From a virus (taxonomy: Duplodnaviria > Heunggongvirae > Uroviricota > Caudoviricetes), in the IMG/VR virus record IMGVR_UViG_2869947659_000003, positions 1 to 11,813 of that record: DNA of 11,813 bases. One strand, 5' to 3'. Positions 1,565 through 11,813 of the stretch are shown here, piece by piece. Made by a program: the position numbers and the translations under genes. Numbering within the stretch: position 1 is the stretch's first letter; every line of letters begins with the position of its first letter. The notes under the pieces are model-generated. The model had not been told where the DNA came from. It saw only the letters and a program-made list of their open reading frames with translations, and searched no databases.

Positions 1565-1640
1565 GTGTCGTCGGGTCCTTCCTGGAATTATGGCCCGTTA
1601 CGGGGCGGCGACCTCGCGGTTTTTCGCTATTTATGAGCTT
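1565..1640 (+). other. Lambda-type cos site, copy 1 (cosQ-like ACGGGTCC-type segment plus cosN; 12-nt cohesive-end sequence GGGCGGCGACCT at 1603..1614)
   Basis: Sequence CGGGTCCTTCCTGG...GTTACGGGGCGGCGACCTCGCGGTTTTTCGCTATTTATGAGC closely matches the lambda genome termini as I recall them (right end ...ACGGGTCCTTTCCGG...GTTACG, left end GGGCGGCGACCTCGCGGGTTTTCGCTATTTATGAAAA). Confidence 0.8.
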
Positions 1641-1831: not shown

Positions 1832-2272
1832 TTAACTTTGCTGTTCTGTAACGACTGATTGTTCCATGCTGGCACGGCAAACGCTTACGGCATGACGCCA
1901 CCCAGCCAGAAAGCCGGCCATTTTATTTCGCGCTTTGCTCACTTCTTCCGGTGAGTAGCCGTAAATCTGTAAACCTTCATCAAATCTATGTTCTGTTTCT
2001 TCACTGGAGTACTCGTCACGCTCAGATGAAAGCAGCCTGGCAACCATAATTTTTTCCAGCGCACTGGTTTCTACGTGATATCCAATGGCCTCAAGATGGC
2101 TTTTACCTGAAGACCAAAGCAATGTATGCCCGATGTGATAACCGCCGGACTTTCCGCGATCCGCATTAAGATACGGCATCCCTTGTTTGGTCCATGCGCG
2201 AATAGTGGTTCTGTTTACCTTGAAATGTTCAGCTATTTCCTGCTGACTTACAAAACAAGCCTTATTAATCAT
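1832..2272 (-). CDS. Nu1-like terminase small subunit homologue (N-terminal winged-helix cos-binding domain); candidate packaging-redirection protein
   Basis: N-terminus VSQQEIAEHFKVNRTTIRAWTKQGMPYLNADRGKSGG aligns with lambda Nu1 VNKKQLADIFGASIRTIQNWQEQGMPVLRGGGKG. Only 146 aa versus 181 aa for Nu1, with a divergent C-terminus. RBS GAGGT precedes the ATG; the gene sits about 90 bp downstream of cos copy 2, as in lambda. Confidence 0.8.
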   Translation of the reverse strand: MINKACFVSQQEIAEHFKVNRTTIRAWTKQGMPYLNADRGKSGGYHIGHTLLWSSGKSHLEAIGYHVETSALEKIMVARLLSSERDEYSSEETEHRFDEGLQIYGYSPEEVSKARNKMAGFLAGWRHAVSVCRASMEQSVVTEQQS

Positions 2273-2339: not shown

Positions 2340-2400
2340 TCATAAATAGCGAAAACCCGCGAGGTCGCCGCCCCGTAACGGCTCCATATGCCGGAAAGGA
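2340..2400 (-). other. Lambda-type cos site, copy 2 (cosQ-cosN; cohesive-end sequence reverse-complemented at 2362..2373), correctly oriented for the Nu1-like gene
   Basis: Minus strand reads ACGGGTCCTTTCCGGCATATGGAGCCGTTACG GGGCGGCGACCT CGCGGGTTTTCGCTATTTATGACG, near-identical to lambda cosQ/cosN. Confidence 0.85.
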
Positions 2401-2405
2401 CCCGT

Positions 2406-2430
2406 AAAAAAAAGCCGGATTTCTCCGGCC
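2406..2430 (-). terminator. Rho-independent terminator downstream of the capsid-like operon
   Basis: Stem GCCGGA / TCCGGC with 4-nt loop, followed on the minus strand by eight U residues. Confidence 0.7.
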
Positions 2431-2435
2431 TTGTC

Positions 2436-2849
2436 TCAGATGGTTTTCAGTATGCGATCGATGTCGCCGTCATCGCCCTGGTTTCTGCCATCGTATGCCA
2501 TGCCAGCTGATACGGCTTGCGGGCTGTGCATGTCCATAAAGTTTTCAAAGGCTGCGGTAAGCTCTGGTGCAACCTTTGGGCGCTCCTGCTCTATGGTCAT
2601 GTTCAGGATTTCACGAGCATTATCGACGCTAATACATGGCACGTTTGCCATTGCACGTAACAGCGGCTGATAGTCTTTATGCTCATGAAGCGCCATAATC
2701 GCATCAGCGCGCGGCTTGTCCTGCTCTTCCAGTTTGTTTAGTTGATATACGGCCTCATAGGTTGATAAACCTCTGTCAGCCATTGCCCGCGCTTCGGCTT
2801 TAAATTTACTCGCCAGCGGTAGCGTCATGATGCTTTCATTCGTTGCCAT
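2436..2849 (-). CDS. Hypothetical protein, 137 aa (last gene of the capsid-like operon)
   Basis: ORF with AGGGGGA Shine-Dalgarno, 12 nt downstream of the gpD-like gene. No recognisable family. Confidence 0.6.
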   Translation of the reverse strand: MATNESIMTLPLASKFKAEARAMADRGLSTYEAVYQLNKLEEQDKPRADAIMALHEHKDYQPLLRAMANVPCISVDNAREILNMTIEQERPKVAPELTAAFENFMDMHSPQAVSAGMAYDGRNQGDDGDIDRILKTI

Positions 2850-2861
2850 CGTTCCCCCTGC

Positions 2862-3197
2862 TTATCGGGCCAGCGGCTGAACGGATACGCCGGAACCCGC
2901 AAAGGCGGCGCATTTTTTCGCATCGGTGTCGACGCTCTCAGGCCAGTTAACGGCGGCAATATTGAATATCCCCGTCTTGTAACACTGTGCTGATTTCTGC
3001 TTTGACGTGTCCACAGGGTACGAGGTCAGATAAACAGCCTTGCCAGATTCCTTACCATCCCACGGCTTAAACTCGCCATTGTCCGCCAGCATCAGCGGGG
3101 TAAATTCCTGAATAACGCCAGCATCAGCGGCAAAATGTACCAGCGTCGTGGCGACCTGCTGACTGCCTGCAAATAACTCAATGTATGGAGTGTCCAT
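2862..3197 (-). CDS. Lambda gpD-like head decoration protein homologue
   Basis: TPLMLADNGEFKPWDG...YKTGIFNIAAVNWPESVDTDAKKCAAFAGSGVSV aligns with lambda gpD TPLMLDTSSRKLVAWDG...[35 protein letters not shown] (from memory). GGGGGA Shine-Dalgarno. Confidence 0.75.
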   Translation of the reverse strand: MDTPYIELFAGSQQVATTLVHFAADAGVIQEFTPLMLADNGEFKPWDGKESGKAVYLTSYPVDTSKQKSAQCYKTGIFNIAAVNWPESVDTDAKKCAAFAGSGVSVQPLAR

Positions 3198-3208: not shown

Positions 3209-4264
3209 TTAACCAATTTTGACGGTAACAAATTTGCGAATATCTGCCGGAACCGGCTGCGGTGCGCTGTGCGTCTGCACGTACTCAATCGCCGGATCGC
3301 CGTCCTCAATCCAGTTTTTCGGGTAAAACATGTTTTGCGTTGCGCCTGTTCTTACTGCGTCCTGATCCATAATCGCACCATAGGCCACCAGCCCTTTATT
3401 GTTGGTGTTGCCCAGAACCAGCAAATCAGGCTCAAGGAAATATTTTTCTGTGCCGTCGCTGTCAGTGTATTTGCCGGAATAGACGATAAGGGCAATATCG
3501 CCCAGATAGCCTTTAAAGCTCACCACTTCGCCCAGGTTTTTACAGGCCAGCTCTGCGGCGGACTCTGAACCACGGGAAAGATCGTACAGCTCACGGAATT
3601 TTTTAAAGCTGCGTAACGTTCGCCATACCTCAGCGCCCATAATCATGACGTTTGCGGGGCAACCAGCCTGATCGGCGTATAGTTCGATATCATAGATTGG
3701 ATCGTGGGTTTCTTTGTCCTGCTCTGACCATTTTTTCCCGTCGGCCTGCTCTATGATGTTTTTTTCCGGTATCTTCCAGTCGATTTCATAGCGCTCTATG
3801 CCTTCGCCCTCAATGATGTTTTTTCCGGTCGTTACCGCATTTACCGCCAGCCATTCCACGCGCGCTTTAATGGCGTTTATCTGGCGGCGCATGTTGCCAG
3901 TAATCAGGCGCATACGGCGATAGGTAGGGTCGTTAAGCTGTGCCGGATCTTCTCCAGCCATGCGCATGATGGTTTTCGTTGGATCGATTTCGTGCTTTGG
4001 CTTCATGTAGCCAGGTTTAATCGTGCTGGTTTCGTACCCTTTATCGCGCTGAACCTGGCTACCCACCATAGGCGAACAAAACGCCGACATGGTGACTTCT
4101 TCAATGTCCAGGGTATCCAGCATGATGTTTTGCGTGCTGAATGTCGCCACGTTCGGGAAAAACAGCGTGGTAAACAGCGGACTGAATTTAAATTCCGCAA
4201 TATCCCCGCGATTCAGGTACGCAAAAAGCTGGTTAGTGTTAAGTACCATTGCTTTTACTGTCAT
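3209..4264 (-). CDS. Lambda gpE-like major capsid protein homologue
   Basis: Conserved blocks along the whole 351 aa shared with lambda gpE: EFKFSPLF, KPGYMKPKHE, DPTYRRMRLI, WSEQDKETHDP, WRTLRSFK, RGSESAAE, SFKGYLGDIALIVYSGKY, LVLGNT, FYPKNWIEDGDPA, QSAP. Start codon overlaps the stop of the upstream 68-aa ORF (TAATG). Confidence 0.9.
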   Translation of the reverse strand: MTVKAMVLNTNQLFAYLNRGDIAEFKFSPLFTTLFFPNVATFSTQNIMLDTLDIEEVTMSAFCSPMVGSQVQRDKGYETSTIKPGYMKPKHEIDPTKTIMRMAGEDPAQLNDPTYRRMRLITGNMRRQINAIKARVEWLAVNAVTTGKNIIEGEGIERYEIDWKIPEKNIIEQADGKKWSEQDKETHDPIYDIELYADQAGCPANVMIMGAEVWRTLRSFKKFRELYDLSRGSESAAELACKNLGEVVSFKGYLGDIALIVYSGKYTDSDGTEKYFLEPDLLVLGNTNNKGLVAYGAIMDQDAVRTGATQNMFYPKNWIEDGDPAIEYVQTHSAPQPVPADIRKFVTVKIG

Positions 4265-4470
4265 TATTCCCCCCCGTGAACCTGATTCATACCCAGCGCC
4301 GCGCGTAAATAGGCGCGTACCTGCCAGCCTGTTGACGGCTCAACCATCGCCAGCGGATCAAGTCCTGCCGCAATGCCTGCTTTTACGTTCTGCTGGTGGC
4401 GTTCCTTGAGCGCCTTCACGATGTCGGGGCTTATGTACACCGAAACACCGCCTTTTTTCTCTTCAGCCAT
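4264..4470 (-). CDS. Hypothetical protein, 68 aa (first gene of the capsid-like operon)
   Basis: AGAGGA Shine-Dalgarno upstream; translationally coupled to the gpE-like gene. No recognisable family. Confidence 0.5.
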   Translation of the reverse strand: MAEEKKGGVSVYISPDIVKALKERHQQNVKAGIAAGLDPLAMVEPSTGWQVRAYLRAALGMNQVHGGE

Positions 4471-4498
4471 AGTAAGAAATTCCTCTTTGACTTAAAAA

Positions 4499-4555
4499 AT
4501 CATAACTGGATGTTCATCCAGTTATGATTATAATCATGATCGCATTTTGTGCAAT
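4499..4555 (-). promoter_or_regulatory. Sigma70-like promoter for the capsid-like operon overlapped by a 30-bp perfect palindrome (candidate operator)
   Basis: Minus strand -35 TTGCAC (4549..4554), 16-bp spacer, -10 TATAAT (4527..4532). Palindrome ATCATAACTGGATG tt CATCCAGTTATGAT at 4499..4528 covers the predicted transcription start. Confidence 0.5.
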
Positions 4556-4633
4556 GATATTGAGTTGCGTTGCAAATTATGAAATGATTATCCCGATCAT
4601 GTGTGTCAGTGCACCAAAAAACCTCATATGCAA

Positions 4634-4672
4634 AAGCCCGATAACCCACCTCTGACCTTATCGGGCTTTTTT
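4634..4672 (+). terminator. Hairpin terminator (10-bp stem AGCCCGATAA / TTATCGGGCT, 13-nt loop, T-run)
   Basis: Seen directly; followed by TTTTTTAT on the plus strand. A weaker U-run follows on the minus strand, so it may act in both directions. Confidence 0.5.
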
Positions 4673-4770
4673 ATCTGCCTGCAAAGATGTTGAACAAAAA
4701 TTAACCACAACCATCATCTTTTTTGCATCAAAACAATTAAAAACAATAAATTACGCTCATGATGATGATG

Positions 4771-4847
4771 ACGATAAAATCACAAAAATGCGCTTTTTTC
4801 CGCGCCTCCCGCCCCGTGTTCAGGCCCACCCCGCCAGGAGGACCCGT
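4771..4847 (-). other. Degenerate third cos-like element (diverged duplicate of cos copy 2)
   Basis: Plus-strand 4771..4869 aligns with 2341..2430 over about 100 bp (…CCGCCCCGT…GGACCCGTAAAAAAGCCGGATTGCTCCGGC). The cohesive-end core is not intact (GGGCGGGAGG instead of GGGCGGCGACCT). Confidence 0.55.
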
Positions 4848-4869
4848 AAAAAAGCCGGATTGCTCCGGC
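4848..4869 (-). terminator. Rho-independent terminator downstream of ssb
   Basis: Stem GCCGGA / TCCGGC with loop, followed on the minus strand by six U residues; near-identical to the terminator at 2406..2430. Confidence 0.7.
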
Positions 4870-4885
4870 TTCTGTCACTCGTCGC

Positions 4886-5308
4886 TTAAAACGGTATGTT
4901 ATCCCCGTACGGATCATCATTCCCCGCCTGTTGTTTTGCCCTGTTCAGCGCGTCAGTAGCCTGGCCCTGTTGACCTTTTTTGCCGCCCAGTCGCGCCGTT
5001 CGCGCACTGATTACACTGTCTGCGATAACCTGCCAGCCCTGCCGCGTTTCCCCGTTCTGTCCGGTCCACTGGCTGACCTGCATCGTGCCGGATACGCTGG
5101 CAACGTCGCCTTTTTGATGTTTAGCCAGGAAGTCGGCCTGCTTACCAAATGCGATGACCGATAGCCATAACGTCGCCTGCCCATCCTGCGCCTGACTACA
5201 TGGCAACGATACCGCCATACGCGCCAGCGTCATCGGTGTGCCCTTGCTGGTCTGTTTTACCTGCGGGTCGTCCACCAGCCGCCCGTAAGCGGCTATCTGT
5301 GCTGTCAT
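4886..5308 (-). CDS. ssb: Single-stranded DNA-binding protein (SSB-like OB-fold protein with acidic C-terminal tail)
   Basis: OB-fold-like core (TLWLSVIAFGKQADFLAKHQKGDVASVSGTMQVSQWTGQNGETRQGWQVIADSV) resembling the E. coli SSB core, and a C-terminal tail ending DDPYGDNIPF (compare the SSB DDDIPF tip). Start overlaps the stop of the upstream ORF (ATGA). Confidence 0.7.
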   Translation of the reverse strand: MTAQIAAYGRLVDDPQVKQTSKGTPMTLARMAVSLPCSQAQDGQATLWLSVIAFGKQADFLAKHQKGDVASVSGTMQVSQWTGQNGETRQGWQVIADSVISARTARLGGKKGQQGQATDALNRAKQQAGNDDPYGDNIPF

Positions 5309-5610: not shown

Positions 5611-5837
5611 TGTCTACCTTATCTACCTTACTGGCTCTCATGCCAGTAATGGCGCGGCTTTCAGCGGGGTAGAGTGCTTTTATCCACTATCTACCCCGTA
5701 TCTACCTCCCTGTCTGATTCAGGTAAAATCAGGTAGAGAGGGTAGATAGTAGGTAGACAGTGAAAAAAGGCTGTCTACCTAAGTTAATATACTGAATTAA
5801 ATGTATTTTTCTTTACTCAGGTAGACAGGGTAGACAG
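5611..5837. repeat. Iteron array (candidate replication origin) with a DnaA-box-like site
   Basis: At least 11 copies of TCTACC / GGTAGA-containing 8-9-mers in both orientations (for example TGTCTACC 5611, TATCTACC 5620 and 5688, GGTAGAGAG 5732, GGTAGATAG 5741, GGTAGACAG 5752, 5820 and 5829, CTGTCTACC 5771). TTATCCACT at 5680..5688 is an 8/9 match to the DnaA box. Lies immediately 3' of the primase gene. Confidence 0.7.
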
Positions 5838-5850
5838 CCATTGCAAAAAA

Positions 5851-7599
5851 TTATAAAAACGCGTCGCAATCGTCTGTTGTTATTGCGTTAGTCTGCGTTA
5901 CTCCCTTAACTTTCCGCGTAATATATTCATGTCCGTAAACTTTCGCGGCTGGCTTCATAGCCTTGCCAAAGTCATTTACGTTTAGCGGTTTGCTCCTGCC
6001 TGCGTATGCCATAAACGCCAGATAGACGCGGTAAAGGCTGTTTCTGGTCGTGTACTTCACTGAATCGCCACCGCCACCCATCATCAGGCCGCGCGCTTCC
6101 TCCAGAAAATTCAGGAACTGGCAAAACTCAATAACCGGATCCGTCTGTTGCTTTATTGCCAGAGCTTCATCACCGTCACGCTGTTCCAGTAGTAAAGCCC
6201 GTGCCTTCTCAGGGTCGGTAAAGTTCGCCAGCAAGCGGCGGATAATGACAGGGATTTCAGCCGCGATCTTTTCCGGTAGCTCCCTGTCTTTTTCTGCCTC
6301 GCTTACGATATTGTCGAAGCGGAAAATAACCCGACGACGTGACACGCCTCCGGCCCGTTCGGTGAATATCATCGGGTTGTTATTGGTCGCCAGCACCACC
6401 GCCCTGATTACCGTAGTGAAACGCTTTTCATATTTCGGGTTGATTTCCACGGGGTCGCCGCCCGTGATTTTCTTGATGCCCGTGCCTTCGCCTGTATATT
6501 TCGGCTGGTCTGCCAGGACGATAAGACGACTCCCGACAACCTGCGCACGCCCACCAGCATCATCAAGCGATGTCATTTCCGCGCTTACCGTGTTTTGTTT
6601 CCCCGCTAAAAGGCTGGCGATGTGGGTGAATGTACTTTTGCCGCTCCCGCCGTCTCCGGTGGCCTCAATAAACATCTGCCAGTCGTACCGGTTCGCCATA
6701 ATCATGTACAGCGCGGCACATATACGCATCATCTTGCGCTGGTCTTTTCCAGCTGCGTGATCAAGCCATTTATGAAAGTTTGGCGCGTTATCGCGGATGT
6801 TCTCCCCAGGTGCTGGTGGCGTGTACTCAATGCCGTTGTGCGTGGTGATCCAGTTCTCCGGCGTGTGCGGGGAAAATTCCCCCGTTTTCAGGTCAAGCGC
6901 ACCATTGGCGAACGGCAGCAAATCGCCGGACGGCTCCCCCATTGGTTCGGCAATAACTTTTAACGCTTCAACGGCGTTATTGATCACGCGTTTGCTGAAA
7001 GTGGCCCTGTGCTCTGAATAGATCGCCACCATTTCGCGGCTCAGCTCCATTGTGCTGATCGGACACCATACCCCGCCGCGCCATACGTGAACGATTTCAC
7101 TTTCCGGATGCACACAAACGCCATCAAAGCGCTCGGCAAGCAGCTGCGCGCGCTCACTGTCTGCCATTTGTGCCAGTTGCGTATTTTTCTGCTCCGGCAT
7201 GGTAAGCCCTGCGGCAATATTTTCACGCTCAGCATTCAGATAGCGCCGCCAGTTTTCACACTTCTGGACGTGCATTCCTTCGGGGTAAAAATTTGCGTCC
7301 TGAATATCTGCCGCCGCCAGCTTCTGACCAATCTTTTTGGTCTCCACTAAATCCAGTTCTCCGGCCTGGTACAGCCTTACGCGCTTTTTCCCATCCGGAA
7401 CAATTTTCAGCGCATCAAGTTCGGCAAGCTGATTTGGCCCAAGCCACACAGGCGGCACATTATCGCCGGATGCGGGGCCATCCTGCTCCTGCCATTGTTT
7501 CGCGTGCGACCAGGCATCACTACCCGCGAAAATAATTACCTCTGTGTCTTTGTGTTTTATTCCGCGTGGCTGTTTTTTTACGTTCGGTGCCAGTTTCAT
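5851..7599 (-). CDS. P4-family primase/helicase (alpha-like replication protein; D5-type SF3 helicase with Walker A)
   Basis: 582-aa ORF with Walker A EATGDGGSGKST and a downstream Walker B-like LIVLAD segment; overall resemblance to the P4 alpha / phage-plasmid primase C-terminal region. Coupled by ATGA overlap to the upstream small ORF. Confidence 0.88.
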   Translation of the reverse strand: MKLAPNVKKQPRGIKHKDTEVIIFAGSDAWSHAKQWQEQDGPASGDNVPPVWLGPNQLAELDALKIVPDGKKRVRLYQAGELDLVETKKIGQKLAAADIQDANFYPEGMHVQKCENWRRYLNAERENIAAGLTMPEQKNTQLAQMADSERAQLLAERFDGVCVHPESEIVHVWRGGVWCPISTMELSREMVAIYSEHRATFSKRVINNAVEALKVIAEPMGEPSGDLLPFANGALDLKTGEFSPHTPENWITTHNGIEYTPPAPGENIRDNAPNFHKWLDHAAGKDQRKMMRICAALYMIMANRYDWQMFIEATGDGGSGKSTFTHIASLLAGKQNTVSAEMTSLDDAGGRAQVVGSRLIVLADQPKYTGEGTGIKKITGGDPVEINPKYEKRFTTVIRAVVLATNNNPMIFTERAGGVSRRRVIFRFDNIVSEAEKDRELPEKIAAEIPVIIRRLLANFTDPEKARALLLEQRDGDEALAIKQQTDPVIEFCQFLNFLEEARGLMMGGGGDSVKYTTRNSLYRVYLAFMAYAGRSKPLNVNDFGKAMKPAAKVYGHEYITRKVKGVTQTNAITTDDCDAFL

Positions 7600-8405: not shown

Positions 8406-8571
8406 CGCTCAGGAATACGCAGACCTCACCGCTAAGGCGTTTAAGTAAGCCGATGATTGCCCCTGATTCGCTGTCGGTCATCATGCCAGGGTAATCCTCT
8501 GCCAGTGCGCAAATAACTTCGATTTGGTGGGCGCGTTCTGCTGCCTGTTGTAGTGTGATTTCCTGACTCAT
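8341..8571 (-). CDS. Hypothetical protein, 76 aa
   Basis: ORF whose ATG overlaps the stop of the upstream 66-aa ORF (ATGA at 8568..8571). Confidence 0.5.
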   Translation of the reverse strand: MSQEITLQQAAERAHQIEVICALAEDYPGMMTDSESGAIIGLLKRLSGEVCVFLSDEQERRTLISNEKKCGGVHVQ

Positions 8572-8768
8572 AAGCCTACCCCCTGACGAATACGGGCGGC
8601 GAATACCATCACGCAGCCATCAGGAGATTGCTGGCGTGCTTCCTGTTCGCTGGTGGCCACGATGTGAATCACGCGCGGTTGTGCGGTGCTCAGGGCGATA
8701 AAACGCCAGATGTATTTATTCAGGTTGTACGAGTCCCGCCCTTGCGGGTGTATGGTATAATTTCTCAT
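8568..8768 (-). CDS. Hypothetical small protein, 66 aa (possibly Icd-like); first gene of the replication operon
   Basis: Sub-ORF MRNYTIHPQGRDSYNLNKYIWRFIALSTAQPRVIHIVATSEQEARQQSPDGCVMVFAARIRQGVGL, taken from the C-terminal end of the 469-aa track ORF, with a GAGG RBS. Its WRF...PRV..I.A.SE.EAR...FAAR pattern resembles what I recall of Icd-like proteins in P4-like prophages; tentative. Confidence 0.45.
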   Translation of the reverse strand: MRNYTIHPQGRDSYNLNKYIWRFIALSTAQPRVIHIVATSEQEARQQSPDGCVMVFAARIRQGVGL

Positions 8769-8859
8769 AGCTGCCTCGATAATCTTGCTATCGTTGGTGG
8801 TTAGAAGCCCCGTTACTGCTCCTACAGTGCGGGGTTTCGTCGTTTCTGCACCTTGCATT

Positions 8860-8945
8860 AACAAGGTGTAAGTAACTTTATTTATAGGTGGCTTACATGT
8901 CAATGCTTTTATGTAAGACTTTTTATGTGTATATTGTCTTACACT
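8860..8945. promoter_or_regulatory. Divergent promoter/operator region with four TGTAAG / CTTACA half-sites
   Basis: TGTAAG at 8867 and 8912, CTTACA at 8892 and 8938; CTTACAT-N12-ATGTAAG forms an inverted repeat. Sits between the plus-strand RHH-like gene and the minus-strand replication operon. Confidence 0.45.
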
Positions 8946-8964
8946 TTCATTGAGAGGATTACAG

Positions 8965-9270
8965 ATGGCTACAGGTTCAAAAAACGCAAAATCACAATCA
9001 CTGACAGCTCGGATCCCGCATGATGTTATTGAAGGCATGGAATCCGTAAAACTGGACGGTGAAAGCAACGCCGGATTCATAGTAACCGCCATGCGCGGTG
9101 AAATCGCCCGCCGCCAGGCAGAAGGAAGCAGAGAAAACCCCCTGATTTCTTCGCTCGATGCACTGGCGCAGGTGGAAAAACTCGGAATCAAAGCCGCCGA
9201 GGAGATCGGGCAGCTCGTCACTGTCGCACGTGAAGAACTCCAGCGCCGCAAGACCAAAGAACCAGAGTAA
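8965..9270 (+). CDS. Probable ribbon-helix-helix (CopG/Arc-like) DNA-binding protein, about 101 aa
   Basis: Strong RBS AGAGGA 6 nt before the ATG at 8965 (the track ORF begins at TTG 8950). N-terminus LTARIPHDVIEGMESVKLDGESNAGFIVTAMRGEIARR fits a beta-strand/helix/helix RHH pattern. Fold assignment is by pattern, not by search. Confidence 0.55.
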   Translation: MATGSKNAKSQSLTARIPHDVIEGMESVKLDGESNAGFIVTAMRGEIARRQAEGSRENPLISSLDALAQVEKLGIKAAEEIGQLVTVAREELQRRKTKEPE

Positions 9271-9327
9271 TCACCATCAGCGCCGTGGTGTAAGGTATTA
9301 CGGCGCATTGCTATGCAGGACAACACA

Positions 9328-9501
9328 ATGACCGATAAAGAATTGACCAAAACATTATCACCGGCACGGAAAAGACGGCGCAGAAAGATAGAGCATGAAT
9401 CAGAAAGATTCGCGCCATGTGCTTTTGCCCTTGAGCAATTCCTTAAAGAGTACAGGGAAAAGCGCTCATTGCAGGTATGGCAACGAACTGAACCAGACTG
9501 A
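9328..9501 (+). CDS. Small basic protein, about 57 aa (the track ORF begins at the upstream ATG 9313)
   Basis: AGGA 7 nt upstream of ATG 9328; N-terminal KRRRRK cluster; followed by a plus-strand terminator. Confidence 0.45.
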   Translation: MTDKELTKTLSPARKRRRRKIEHESERFAPCAFALEQFLKEYREKRSLQVWQRTEPD

Positions 9502-9577
9502 TTGCATTGCCCACCAGCCGCAAATGTGGCATTGTTGGCAATGCTCATGCGTTGGGGATAACGTGTAGCTTGTGTCG

Positions 9578-9609
9578 AGGGGCCACCGTAGCGGGTGGCC
9601 TTTGTTTTG
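9578..9609 (+). terminator. Rho-independent terminator ending the plus-strand cassette
   Basis: Stem GGCCACC / GGTGGCC with loop GTAGCG, followed by TTTGTTTTG. Confidence 0.6.
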
Positions 9610-9612
9610 CCC

Positions 9613-9977
9613 GTTATTCGGCAATTGTGGCGCTTCTCCACATGGTTGATATAATCCCACTGCTCAGATTCATTTTTTGCGCAGTAGGTTAATTGTTCAC
9701 AAAGGCGCTCCGGCAACGGGGCGCTTTTTGTTTTTATTAGTTTGTAGAAACCTGACTCAGAGATAATGCTCATATTCTGATTGCCGTCAGGGGTGTAAGT
9801 TAAATTTACTCCCTTTTTATCATCAAACATCTGCAACACTCTGGCGTTAACAATATTGGTTTCACTCCCGCCAGTAAGGCCGGAAATAACCGGAATACTT
9901 TCGGCAAAATTTTGCAGATTCTGTTTTTCAGGACGAACGAAGCCCCGCCCTTGTTCGGGAGAATATCCAGTATTCAT
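9613..9977 (-). pseudogene. Possible 5' remnant of a gene downstream of alpA (N-terminal ~120 codons of the 469-aa track ORF); extent uncertain
   Basis: The N-terminal part (MNTGYSPEQGRGFVRPEKQ...EQWDYINHVEKRHNC) has protein-like composition. The rest of the 469-aa frame runs antisense through the plus-strand genes and is Ser/Cys/Arg-rich, so it is probably not a real protein. No in-frame stop exists until 8568. Confidence 0.3.
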
Positions 9978-10029: not shown

Positions 10030-10218
10030 TTAGTGAACTGCCTCGCAGCTGTCCTTCCATGCCAGAACTTCGGATAAAGACCAGCCAACGGAACGACCGC
10101 CCAGCTTACGCCGTGATGGGAATTGTCCGGCTTTTTCCAGGCGGTACCGACATGAGCGGCTCAGGCCTGTAAGTTGCTGACATTCTTTTTCACGTATAAA
10201 GCGATCTGTGCTTAACAC
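10030..10218 (-). CDS. alpA: AlpA/Vis-like winged-helix regulator (prophage excisionase / transcriptional activator family)
   Basis: 62-aa protein resembling CP4-57 AlpA and P4 Vis-type proteins in size, composition and position next to a P4-type integrase. Start is GTG at 10218 with AAGGGGGA upstream. Confidence 0.8.
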   Translation of the reverse strand: MLSTDRFIREKECQQLTGLSRSCRYRLEKAGQFPSRRKLGGRSVGWSLSEVLAWKDSCEAVH

Positions 10219-10300: not shown

Positions 10301-10498
10301 GAATGGCAAACACTGGCGGCGGTCGTTTTACAGAAGCATGGGGAATGAGAATAAAAACTCTTTTAATTCATTATGATGCAAAGGCATAAAATTTTACTTT
10401 TACGCCTTTTTTACATATTTTTAAGAGTGATTCGCCAGTGTATAAAAAAACAGTACACCTATAAAAATCAAATGGTTATTACGATGGCTGATTTTTAA

Positions 10499-10560
10499 CC
10501 CGTTGTTCCATTTTGTTCCTTGTTGTTCGTCGTTGTGTCTCGTTGTTTCACGTTGTCCGC
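10499..10560. repeat. Six tandem roughly 10-bp direct repeats (consensus tCGTTGTTyC) just 3' of the integrase gene
   Basis: CCGTTGTTCC, ATTTTGTTCC, TTGTTGTTCG, TCGTTGTGTC, TCGTTGTTTC, ACGTTGTCCG in helical phase. Candidate binding array for Int arm-binding domain, AlpA/Vis or IHF-type proteins. Confidence 0.4.
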
Positions 10561-10583
10561 ATCCTGAAAAATCGCAAAAAAAA

Positions 10584-11813
10584 TTATATTTCTCTGGCTA
10601 TTGGCAATGTGGTTACGTTTTCATGTGTTCCCGCCAGTATCCCTAACCGCTCCGTCCACATATCCAGCGCGTCACGTTTCGCATCCAGATAACGGGAATG
10701 GTTATAGACTCGTTGCATCCCTGGCATCTGATGACCTGTAAGCTGCTCCACGACGTGAGGATCCACGCCTAAATCGTTCAGCATCGTTGTAAAGGTGCGC
10801 CGGATGTCATGCAGTGACCAGTGAGGGTGTTTTAGCCTCCTGTGCGCTAATCTACCGTACTGCGACACGCTTGTTTCCTGTTTCACTTCCCCCAGCAATA
10901 AGCCCGTGTGCCTGTTCTGCTCCACCAGCTGCGTGACGAACGGTAGTATTGCTTCCGGTATGGGCCGGAATATTGCCACCTTCGTTTTGCTGTGTTCTTT
11001 CGGCACGGTCCAGAGCATTTCGGTAAAATCCCACTCGCTGATCTCCGATAACCTCAGTTCTACCGTCCGGCATCCGAAAACAATCAGGAGGCGGATTAGT
11101 GCGACGTAGTAAGGGGAAAATATTTTTTTGTCCAGTGCCTGCAATAATTCGCCAAGTTCTTTGGTGCTTAAGACACGCTCGCTTATATCCGGTTTTTTCC
11201 TAACGTCCGCCACACTCATATCATCAAGAACGTTGCTGATTGCATAGCGCCGCCTCCGGCAGAACTTAAGCGCCTGTTTGCACGTCTGTAGCAAGAATCC
11301 GGCAGTAACAGGCGTTCGCTTTGCCACCTGGTCAAAACAGGCCAGCCAGTGCCGTAGCTCGCATTTATCCAGCGGCATAGCACCAATGTGCTGTATTACG
11401 TGATTATTAAGGCGCTTTTTCAGGGCGGCATAATCCACGCGGTTTTCCTTTGCGTACGACTCAAGCCAGTAGGTGAGCGCATCGCCAACCGTTACCGGCT
11501 TTAACGCTTCCTGTACGGTGTAATTAAGCTCATGACGTGGATTTTTCCCCTCTGCCAGCCATGCGCGACACTGGGCGGCTTTTTCCCTGGCTGATTTCAG
11601 GCTCAGATCAGGATAATTTCCCAGCTTAATGCGTTCCGGTGGTGCCCCCCTTCCCGTTCCGGCCCTGTAAGTGAAATACCAGGTTAAAAGGCCACTGGTT
11701 GAATGCCTGACGCTCAGGTTTCCACCGTCATTAAGAAAGGCTGTTTTTTGGGCGGGTGTGCCGTTGATTTTCCTCAGCTGTGTATCGCTCAGTTTGTTAA
11801 GTGCTCTGCTCAT
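10584..11813 (-). CDS. int: P4-type tyrosine integrase (site-specific recombinase)
   Basis: 409-aa ORF with N-terminal arm-binding-like region and C-terminal catalytic motifs (HDIRRT, GHQ, RVYNHSRYL with the catalytic Tyr). The ATG is at the window edge; alignment with the P4 Int N-terminus suggests this is close to the true start. Confidence 0.93.
   Translation of the reverse strand: MSRALNKLSDTQLRKINGTPAQKTAFLNDGGNLSVRHSTSGLLTWYFTYRAGTGRGAPPERIKLGNYPDLSLKSAREKAAQCRAWLAEGKNPRHELNYTVQEALKPVTVGDALTYWLESYAKENRVDYAALKKRLNNHVIQHIGAMPLDKCELRHWLACFDQVAKRTPVTAGFLLQTCKQALKFCRRRRYAISNVLDDMSVADVRKKPDISERVLSTKELGELLQALDKKIFSPYYVALIRLLIVFGCRTVELRLSEISEWDFTEMLWTVPKEHSKTKVAIFRPIPEAILPFVTQLVEQNRHTGLLLGEVKQETSVSQYGRLAHRRLKHPHWSLHDIRRTFTTMLNDLGVDPHVVEQLTGHQMPGMQRVYNHSRYLDAKRDALDMWTERLGILAGTHENVTTLPIAREI

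Follow-up and report, generated by a model that had tools for sequence, protein, structure and literature searches.

The locus analyzed here raises a simple question: what acts on a long, perfect palindrome that covers the predicted start site of a promoter for capsid-like genes in a phage satellite? The window, meaning the whole 11,813-nt stretch of DNA that was analyzed, is a Gram-negative phage-inducible chromosomal island (PICI) of the EcCICFT073 type, from E. coli, and is encoded on the minus strand (Table 1). With EcCICFT073 it shares int, alpA, pri, ssb, the capsid E and D homologs, an rpp-like gene and two cos sites, and the 32-bp palindrome in CFT073 is identical to that of the window. 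Unlike EcCICFT073, the window has no perC upstream of the promoter, and it carries an IS3-family element at one end. The capsid-promoter region was matched in 603 of 5,426 complete E. coli genomes, with CFT073 itself at 98.5%; in ATCC 25922 the region is 97% identical. The hairpin located after the fourth gene and before cos and rpp is the probable end of a four-gene operon.

Table 1. Coordinates of the genes and sequence elements of the island that are discussed in the text; the order follows the minus strand.
Feature	Position	Strand	Remarks
Integrase (int)	10584-11813	-	
AlpA	10030-10218	-	Pfam Phage_AlpA, 3e-18
D5-type primase (pri)	5851-7599	-	
SSB	4886-5308	-	
G+C-rich bidirectional terminator-like hairpin, between ssb module and capsid promoter	4625-4677		Kept in relatives
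Second dyad ATTGCA-N5-TGC(G/A)AT, across -35 and spacer	4539-4555	-	1 mismatch in window
-35 hexamer TTGCAC	4554-4549	-	3/6 to TTGACA (TTG)
-10 hexamer TATAAT	4532-4527	-	Perfect consensus; near-invariant in relatives
LexA (SOS) box-like 20-mer AACTGGATGAACATCCAGTT, CTG-N10-CAG	4504-4523	-	Conserved core of palindrome
T-run after palindrome	4494-4499	-	Also in lineages without the palindrome
Shine-Dalgarno AGAGGA	4481-4486	-	10 nt before ATG at 4470; invariant in relatives
68-aa protein, operon gene 1	4264-4470	-	phrog_3255; stop overlaps capsid gene start
Major capsid protein homolog, lambda gpE family (c1499 of EcCICFT073)	3209-4264	-	Pfam Phage_cap_E, E = 2e-52
Head decoration homolog, lambda gpD family (c1500)	2862-3197	-	Pfam HDPD, E = 2.5e-17
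137-aa protein, last gene of operon	2436-2849	-	Resembles C-terminal (scaffold) part of head maturation protease; phrog_1999, phrog_53
Terminator-like hairpin and T-run	2411-2432	-	9 pairs, 5 G-C
Rpp/TerS-like HTH protein	1832-2272	-	

Several features of the island outside the capsid module were recorded along the way. The IS3-family element (1-1157; orfA 855-1157 and orfB 1-819, both on the minus strand) adjoins the island end, and at this end the relatives continue into host genes, phoQ among them. Two perfect 20-nt matches to lambda cosN (ACGGGGCGGCGACCTCGCGG) are found at 1600-1619 (+) and 2357-2376 (-); they are inverted and flank the rpp-like gene, in agreement with the two cos sites reported for EcCICFT073. 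A cos or packaging role for the palindrome was considered and rejected, given that the perfect lambda-type cosN sequences sit elsewhere. The PerC-family gene, which lies between ssb and the capsid promoter in the CFT073 and O55:H7 islands, is missing from the window, and its place (4680-4885, compared with L001:6700-7000) is taken by approximately 200 nt of non-coding DNA, including a G+C-rich stretch at about 4795-4860 that by eye is like a degenerate cos region. Just downstream of int, at 10520-10585, there are six copies of a GAACAACG-like motif with a periodicity of about 10 bp (ggacaacg, tgaaacaacg, agacacaacg, acgaacaaca, aggaacaaaa and tggaacaacg), which may be arm-type recombinase sites or binding sites for AlpA/Xis. 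Nested inverted repeats (CTGTCTACC / GGTAGACAG and related sequences) are clustered at 5681-5842, between pri and the next gene, and this is probably the island replication origin. A 469-aa open reading frame at 8568-9977 (-) is of low complexity and rich in Ser, Ala and Cys; it overlaps the place where relatives have several short genes (icd-like, and YlcI-like on the other strand) and is unlikely to be a real gene.

On the sense (minus) strand, the palindrome reads AATCATAACTGGATG-AA-CATCCAGTTATGATT (in full, AATCATAACTGGATGAACATCCAGTTATGATT), with two arms of 15 nt each, at 4498-4512 and 4515-4529, that are 100% complementary around a 2-nt center. The initial annotation had given 14-bp arms and a total of 30 bp; the perfect symmetry is real, but it extends to 32 bp, and the 'tt' center quoted there is the plus-strand reading of the sense-strand AA. 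Arms of at least 15 nt with a spacer of at most 10 nt occurred in 0 of 300 first-order Markov simulations of the window, and arms of at least 12 nt in 0.7%.

The promoter has a spacer of 16 nt between its two hexamers. It had been described as near-consensus, which is correct for the perfect -10 but not for the -35, where three of six positions agree; it is because the -35 matches TTGACA only at TTG that a consensus promoter scan did not list this promoter. The -35/16-nt/-10 layout was kept in all related lineages examined (E. coli, two Salmonella lineages, Pluralibacter and the L011 type), which have in common the arrangement TTGC/16 nt/TA(T/A)AAT, and for this reason a real sigma-70 promoter can soundly be placed here. 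An alternative upstream promoter (TTCATA-18-TATCAT), from which the full hairpin would be transcribed, was rejected because Salmonella, Pluralibacter and the L011 type do not keep its -10. The palindrome does not begin after the promoter, as first thought, but overlaps it, the last 3 nt of the -10 falling inside the left arm. In sense-strand order, TATAAT is followed by CAT, the 20-mer AACTGGATGAACATCCAGTT (4523-4504), ATGATT and then the T-run. Transcription is predicted to start about 7 nt after the -10 (approximately position 4520), within the left arm, and the 20-mer starts 4 nt past the -10, covers this predicted +1 and lies 33 nt before the ATG. The initial description of a promoter ahead of capsid-like genes, with a dyad-symmetric site over the predicted start in the classic position for a repressor operator, was upheld.

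The core of the palindrome had been said to resemble the LexA box without matching it, its form being CTGG-N8-CCAG and not CTGT-N8-ACAG. To score it, a symmetrized LexA matrix was made from Table 4 of PMC3009722, which gives 18 SOS boxes of E. coli, and the known boxes were scored leave-one-out. The core AACTGGATGAACATCCAGTT (4523-4504) reached 20.3 bits, compared with 18.5 for ruvA, 19.2 for lexA, 19.4 for cho, 20.2 for sulA and 20.6 for recA, in an overall range of 6.6-27.9; the core thus scores above ruvA, is about equal to recA and sulA, and lies within the range of experimentally established boxes, so the claim of a mismatch does not stand. CTG and CAG are found at the spacing of the LexA dyad (consensus TACTGTATATATATACAGTA). 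The half-site CTGGAT is exactly that of the ruvA box (CGCTGGATATCTATCCAGCA, with the core CTGGAT..ATCCAG) and of cho (CACTGGATAGATAACCAGCA), whose box beginning CACTGGATAG bears it, and CCAG is also present in the recN, dinI, uvrD, uvrB and dinB boxes (PMC3009722). A heterology-type index, calculated from our own matrix and not from the published Lewis matrix, was 7.0-7.4 for the core versus 6.5 for ruvA with the same all-sites matrix and 8.5 for ruvA leave-one-out.

Such a score is rare by chance. Random sequence should give a match of at least 20 bits 0.001 times per 11.8 kb, and 848 kb of unrelated genomic DNA gave zero matches of at least 18 bits and one of at least 15 bits. A random 32-nt perfect palindrome attains at least 20 bits with a probability of only 1-3e-4, and the LexA match is therefore not a side effect of the symmetry. 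The core departs from the LexA consensus at box positions 6 and 15, where both half-sites have G/C for the preferred T/A, and its center, GAAC, is less A+T-rich; because of these departures, the affinity of LexA for the core is probably moderate and like that for ruvA. The ruvAB and cho boxes resemble the core in their CTG-N10-CAG geometry, their unusual CTGGAT/ATCCAG half-sites and their comparable scores. They differ from it in their flanks and 4-nt center, and LexA binding has been demonstrated for those boxes, whereas here it is predicted from sequence; moreover, the box in the window is nested in a 32-bp perfect palindrome and carried by a mobile element.

Relatives of the region were collected from E. 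coli genomes, from contigs with diverged homologs of the 68-aa or capsid protein and from 80 IMG/VR contigs, which yielded 46 sequence variants of the E. coli-type region. The whole 130-nt region was well conserved among these, and the changes clustered in the outer arms (CA-x1x2x3-C ... G-y3y2y1-TG) and the 4-nt center. CTGGAT/ATCCAG was invariant, save for ATACAG (C to A) in three variants and a 1-nt insertion in one. In the ATACAG variants (L147/L171/L198) the palindrome is broken, and the LexA score rises to 21.7 bits. Scores of 16.2-22.2 bits were obtained for 86 of 89 locus records, which are not all independent, the public contigs being partly duplicated.

Farther afield, the two Salmonella cores (GACTGGATAAATATCCAGAT and GACTGGATGAAAATCCAGTA) stand among diverged outer arms and flanks, and the Pluralibacter core (AACTGGATGTTTGTCCAGTT) is located 13 bp farther downstream. 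A Lelliottia island, whose capsid protein shares 59% identity with that of the window and whose small ORF product shares 33% (E = 1e-7), has a canonical box (CACTGTTTTTTCATACAGTT, 21.1 bits) at the equivalent position, 26 nt ahead of the small ORF. Boxes of the CTGG type are hence found in E. coli, two Salmonella lineages and Pluralibacter, and a CTGT..ACAG box in Lelliottia. What these comparisons show to be conserved is a 20-bp CTG-N10-CAG dyad. Perfect arms of 15 bp are a trait of the CFT073 lineage; the arms first reported as perfect over 14 bp are indeed so there, but beyond that lineage only the inner ~20 bp or so is conserved. Since Lelliottia has a canonical box at the equivalent position, what evolution appears to retain at this site is "a LexA box" rather than "this palindrome".

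Counting against a LexA operator, a LexA-like site was missing at the promoter in the L011 type, L213/Edwardsiella, Serratia, Cedecea and an E. coli type of 56% identity. The core-less lineages (L011, L214-L216, L246, L251, L257, L283-L285, L213 and L309) retain the CATGAC ... GTTATG arms and the T-run. Their -10 is TAAAAT, not TATAAT, which, speculatively, would fit a weaker promoter where repression has been lost (L011 type, L213/Edwardsiella). In another, very divergent lineage (capsid 64% identical, small ORF 22%), a perfect-armed dyad, TGTTG-N10-CAACA, follows the -10 (L316:2726-2745 and L317:500-519) and scores 4.8 bits; it has LexA-box geometry, but TTG stands in place of CTG and CAA in place of CAG. 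Such a dyad could have come from a box that decayed and was symmetrized by mutation, or it could be the operator of another protein. Wider scans added little: a capsid-protein-anchored scan of genome contigs gave 45 pattern matches, 0 of them confirmed; in a scan of genome contigs with the promoter DNA pattern, the pattern was too degenerate, and the matches listed were all chance ones in unrelated taxa; and the Lelliottia capsid protein had zero matches in viral contigs.

Together, we consider it reasonably probable, though well short of certain, that the palindrome contains a LexA operator over the start site and that the four-gene capsid-like operon is derepressed in the SOS response. From the sequence, we infer LexA binding and SOS inducibility as follows. 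LexA is common to all hosts of these islands. In undamaged cells, a LexA dimer on the core would block open-complex formation or promoter escape. Upon DNA damage, activated RecA would promote self-cleavage of LexA, the operator would be left empty and the promoter would fire; the operon thus freed would supply the 68-aa protein, the gpE-like capsid protein, the gpD-like decoration protein and the 137-aa scaffold-like protein. The damage signal freeing the capsid promoter would be the same signal that induces a helper prophage. EcCICFT073 is the prototype Gram-negative PICI (Fillol-Salom et al. 2018, 2019). According to published work, expression of alpA in this island depends on the helper phage and is independent of SOS, with AlpA as an activator, and mutants deleted for c1499 or c1500 had no phenotype. 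SOS is consequently not the simple driver of the entire island, because alpA depends on the helper and not on SOS.

The putative LexA operator may not be the sole input to this promoter. The second dyad, ATTGCA-N5-TGCAAT across the -35 and spacer, was perfect in most relatives and found in every lineage, even where the LexA-like box is absent; in the L213/Edwardsiella type (L213/L309) it is duplicated. This pattern suggests that it is a candidate site for a further regulator. A further TGCAAC is present about 20 nt upstream of the second dyad, at approximately 4569-4574.

A second LexA-box-like 20-mer was noticed at 10436-10455, in the int-alpA spacer and some 220 nt ahead of alpA. Its sense-strand sequence, TACTGTTTTTTTATACACTG, has a score of 18.3 bits; its right half has CAC instead of CAG. 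The occurrence of such further boxes in these islands counts in favor of the LexA reading. The int-alpA box is conserved in CFT073, O55:H7 and EDL933 CP-933C (L001:1029; L002:1456, 1345; L308:41699, 41588). The EDL933 CP-933C island has a box of 19.3 bits and a 13.5-bit site just after int, and these are the sole matches of at least 13 bits in 49 kb of EDL933. A ciprofloxacin transcriptome of EHEC EDL933, in which the capsid gene changed -1.8-fold, was uninformative, since the capsid module of CP-933C and its upstream region differ.

The LexA operator model leaves one feature of the palindrome over. The symmetry of the outer arms, beyond the 20-mer, is not needed for it, is partly conserved and shows some compensatory change, and these compensatory changes are not explained by LexA binding. 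A more elaborate possibility, which we think rather unlikely in its entirety, is that EcCICFT073-type PICIs sense damage via LexA at both the capsid promoter and the int-alpA spacer, in parallel to the helper-dependent AlpA switch, and that the capsid site is composite, with a LexA box set in a longer palindrome whose outer arms are kept symmetric by selection for a second function, for instance through a second binding protein or as a hairpin in read-through transcripts.

Another dimeric DNA-binding protein of the island or its helper might use the palindrome as its operator instead, the best candidate being the 68-aa protein as an autorepressor; on the evidence that follows, this is unlikely. 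Dedicated repressors typically have such long and fully symmetric sites across the start, some outer-arm changes are symmetric double changes, and the small gene is invariably directly downstream of the site. The N-terminus of the 68-aa protein (GGVSVYISPDIVKALKE) resembles the strand-helix start of a ribbon-helix-helix (RHH) protein, and one homolog has a weak match to the RHH-containing BrnA antitoxin family (BrnA_antitoxin, E = 0.017). However, the AF2 model of the 68-aa protein has two helices with a pLDDT of 73, its Foldseek matches were all at E > 1, and the protein from the window had no Pfam match. The putative reading strand GGVTVYIS occurs in homologs that have the palindrome (L313 and E. 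coli P0006/P0013) and in one that does not (L309), so an RHH autorepressor and this operator are not distributed together. In the divergent L316 lineage, a different dyad at the equivalent place accompanies a very divergent small protein, which speaks for this reading, but the 33%-identical protein of Lelliottia lies behind a canonical LexA box. No extra copies of the half-site, at up to three mismatches, were found in the window or island.

Other candidate binders fared similarly. The RHH-like (YlcI/YnfO-type) product of 8950-9270, which the initial annotation had put forward, is not co-distributed with the site: islands of the O55:H7 type and of Salmonella retain the core but have no homolog, and the CFT073 homolog is just 56% identical even though the 32-bp palindrome is identical. 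Nor is alpA co-distributed; with the window protein as query, homologs were undetectable in the Salmonella and Pluralibacter islands, and AlpA homologs are present in EDL933 CP-933C, where the capsid module differs. A helper-encoded signal acting on the palindrome had also been proposed, but 50,697 phage genome records contained zero copies of it, with partial matches at chance level. The distributions of the RHH-like gene and of alpA, both independent of the site, the lack of the palindrome in these phage records and the presence of LexA in all the hosts count in favor of LexA as the binder. With any other binder, the LexA match would be a coincidence with a probability of about 1e-4.

The symmetry might also act at the level of nucleic acid, as an intrinsic terminator or attenuator of transcripts from upstream or as a DNA hairpin or cruciform, but this we judge improbable. 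As in intrinsic terminators, a stem-loop is followed by a T-run on the sense strand, and a terminator scan flagged the palindrome there (14 pairs, 4 of them G-C, with the T-run); the complete hairpin has a folding energy of -19.8 kcal/mol (z = -4.4), and in Pluralibacter the corresponding element is located entirely beyond the start, with U6 behind it. Unlike intrinsic terminators, however, the palindrome has an A+U-rich stem, with just 4 of 14 G-C pairs where a stable G+C-rich stem would be expected; it overlaps a conserved -10, and its structure is not conserved outside the E. coli lineage, a stable hairpin being neither predicted nor evident in Salmonella and Lelliottia. Because the -10 is partly in the left arm, the promoter's own transcript would be without that arm and keep a 6-bp hairpin whose stability does not exceed that of shuffled sequences (fold of the 42-nt 5' transcript, -8.1 kcal/mol, z = -1.2). 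For transcripts from upstream, a strong G+C-rich terminator is already present 95 nt before the palindrome (4625-4677). In the outer arms, four pairs have changed on both sides, and the covariation score exceeded those of all 500 shuffles; the pair states include T:A, C:G and G:C at one position, C:G to T:A at another and A:T to G:C at a third, and G:U-compatible states are common. Against this, at one position pairing is absent from 9 of the 19 variants, and kinship and templated mutation can mimic such a signal. The commonest variants have a G:A mismatch within the stem, the core is kept as sequence without co-variation, the ATACAG variants disrupt the center of the stem, and an Rfam search matched zero families.

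Least probable of all, and in our view very improbable, is that the palindrome has no function beyond the promoter and owes its symmetry to quasi-palindrome (template-switch) mutation and common descent: such mutation symmetrizes long quasi-palindromes, the flip of the center from AA to TT in L161 and other symmetric changes that look like single steps fit it, and the high conservation of the whole 130-nt region makes core conservation alone weak evidence within E. coli, but the core persists where the neighboring sequence has diverged and has moved by 13 bp in Pluralibacter, Lelliottia has an independent canonical LexA box at the equivalent place, and the LexA score far exceeds what chance would give a palindrome.

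The preferred reading, a LexA operator within the palindrome, has precedents, in that LexA operators and LexA control of a satellite morphogenesis operon are both already known. Operon I of the S. aureus pathogenicity islands (SaPIs) is derepressed by the helper-inducing signal, independently of the island master regulator; it includes terS and is needed for packaging, and the LexA motif there is of the Gram-positive CGAAC-N4-GTTCG type. This packaging and capsid morphogenesis operon is reportedly LexA-controlled (Ubeda et al. 2007, Mol Microbiol 65:41). SaPI operon I and the operon proposed here are alike in that a satellite morphogenesis module would be under the host SOS repressor. They are unlike in host clade, LexA motif and genes, which are unrelated, making this an analogy and not a homology; the operon in the window also seems to end before cos and rpp, and its capsid genes are without a detectable phenotype. 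In the literature searched, we found nothing on this promoter, and an operator or LexA box for the capsid genes of Gram-negative PICIs was not reported there.

The current picture of Gram-negative PICI regulation is AlpA-centered and helper-dependent. If the LexA operator is real, enterobacterial satellites would tie their morphogenesis module to the host SOS response, as the staphylococcal islands do, and this would be convergent evolution because neither the genes nor the LexA motifs are related to the staphylococcal ones. The E. coli SOS regulon would gain a widespread mobile-element promoter, and SOS induction in non-lysogens would be a simple handle on what the capsid homologs do.
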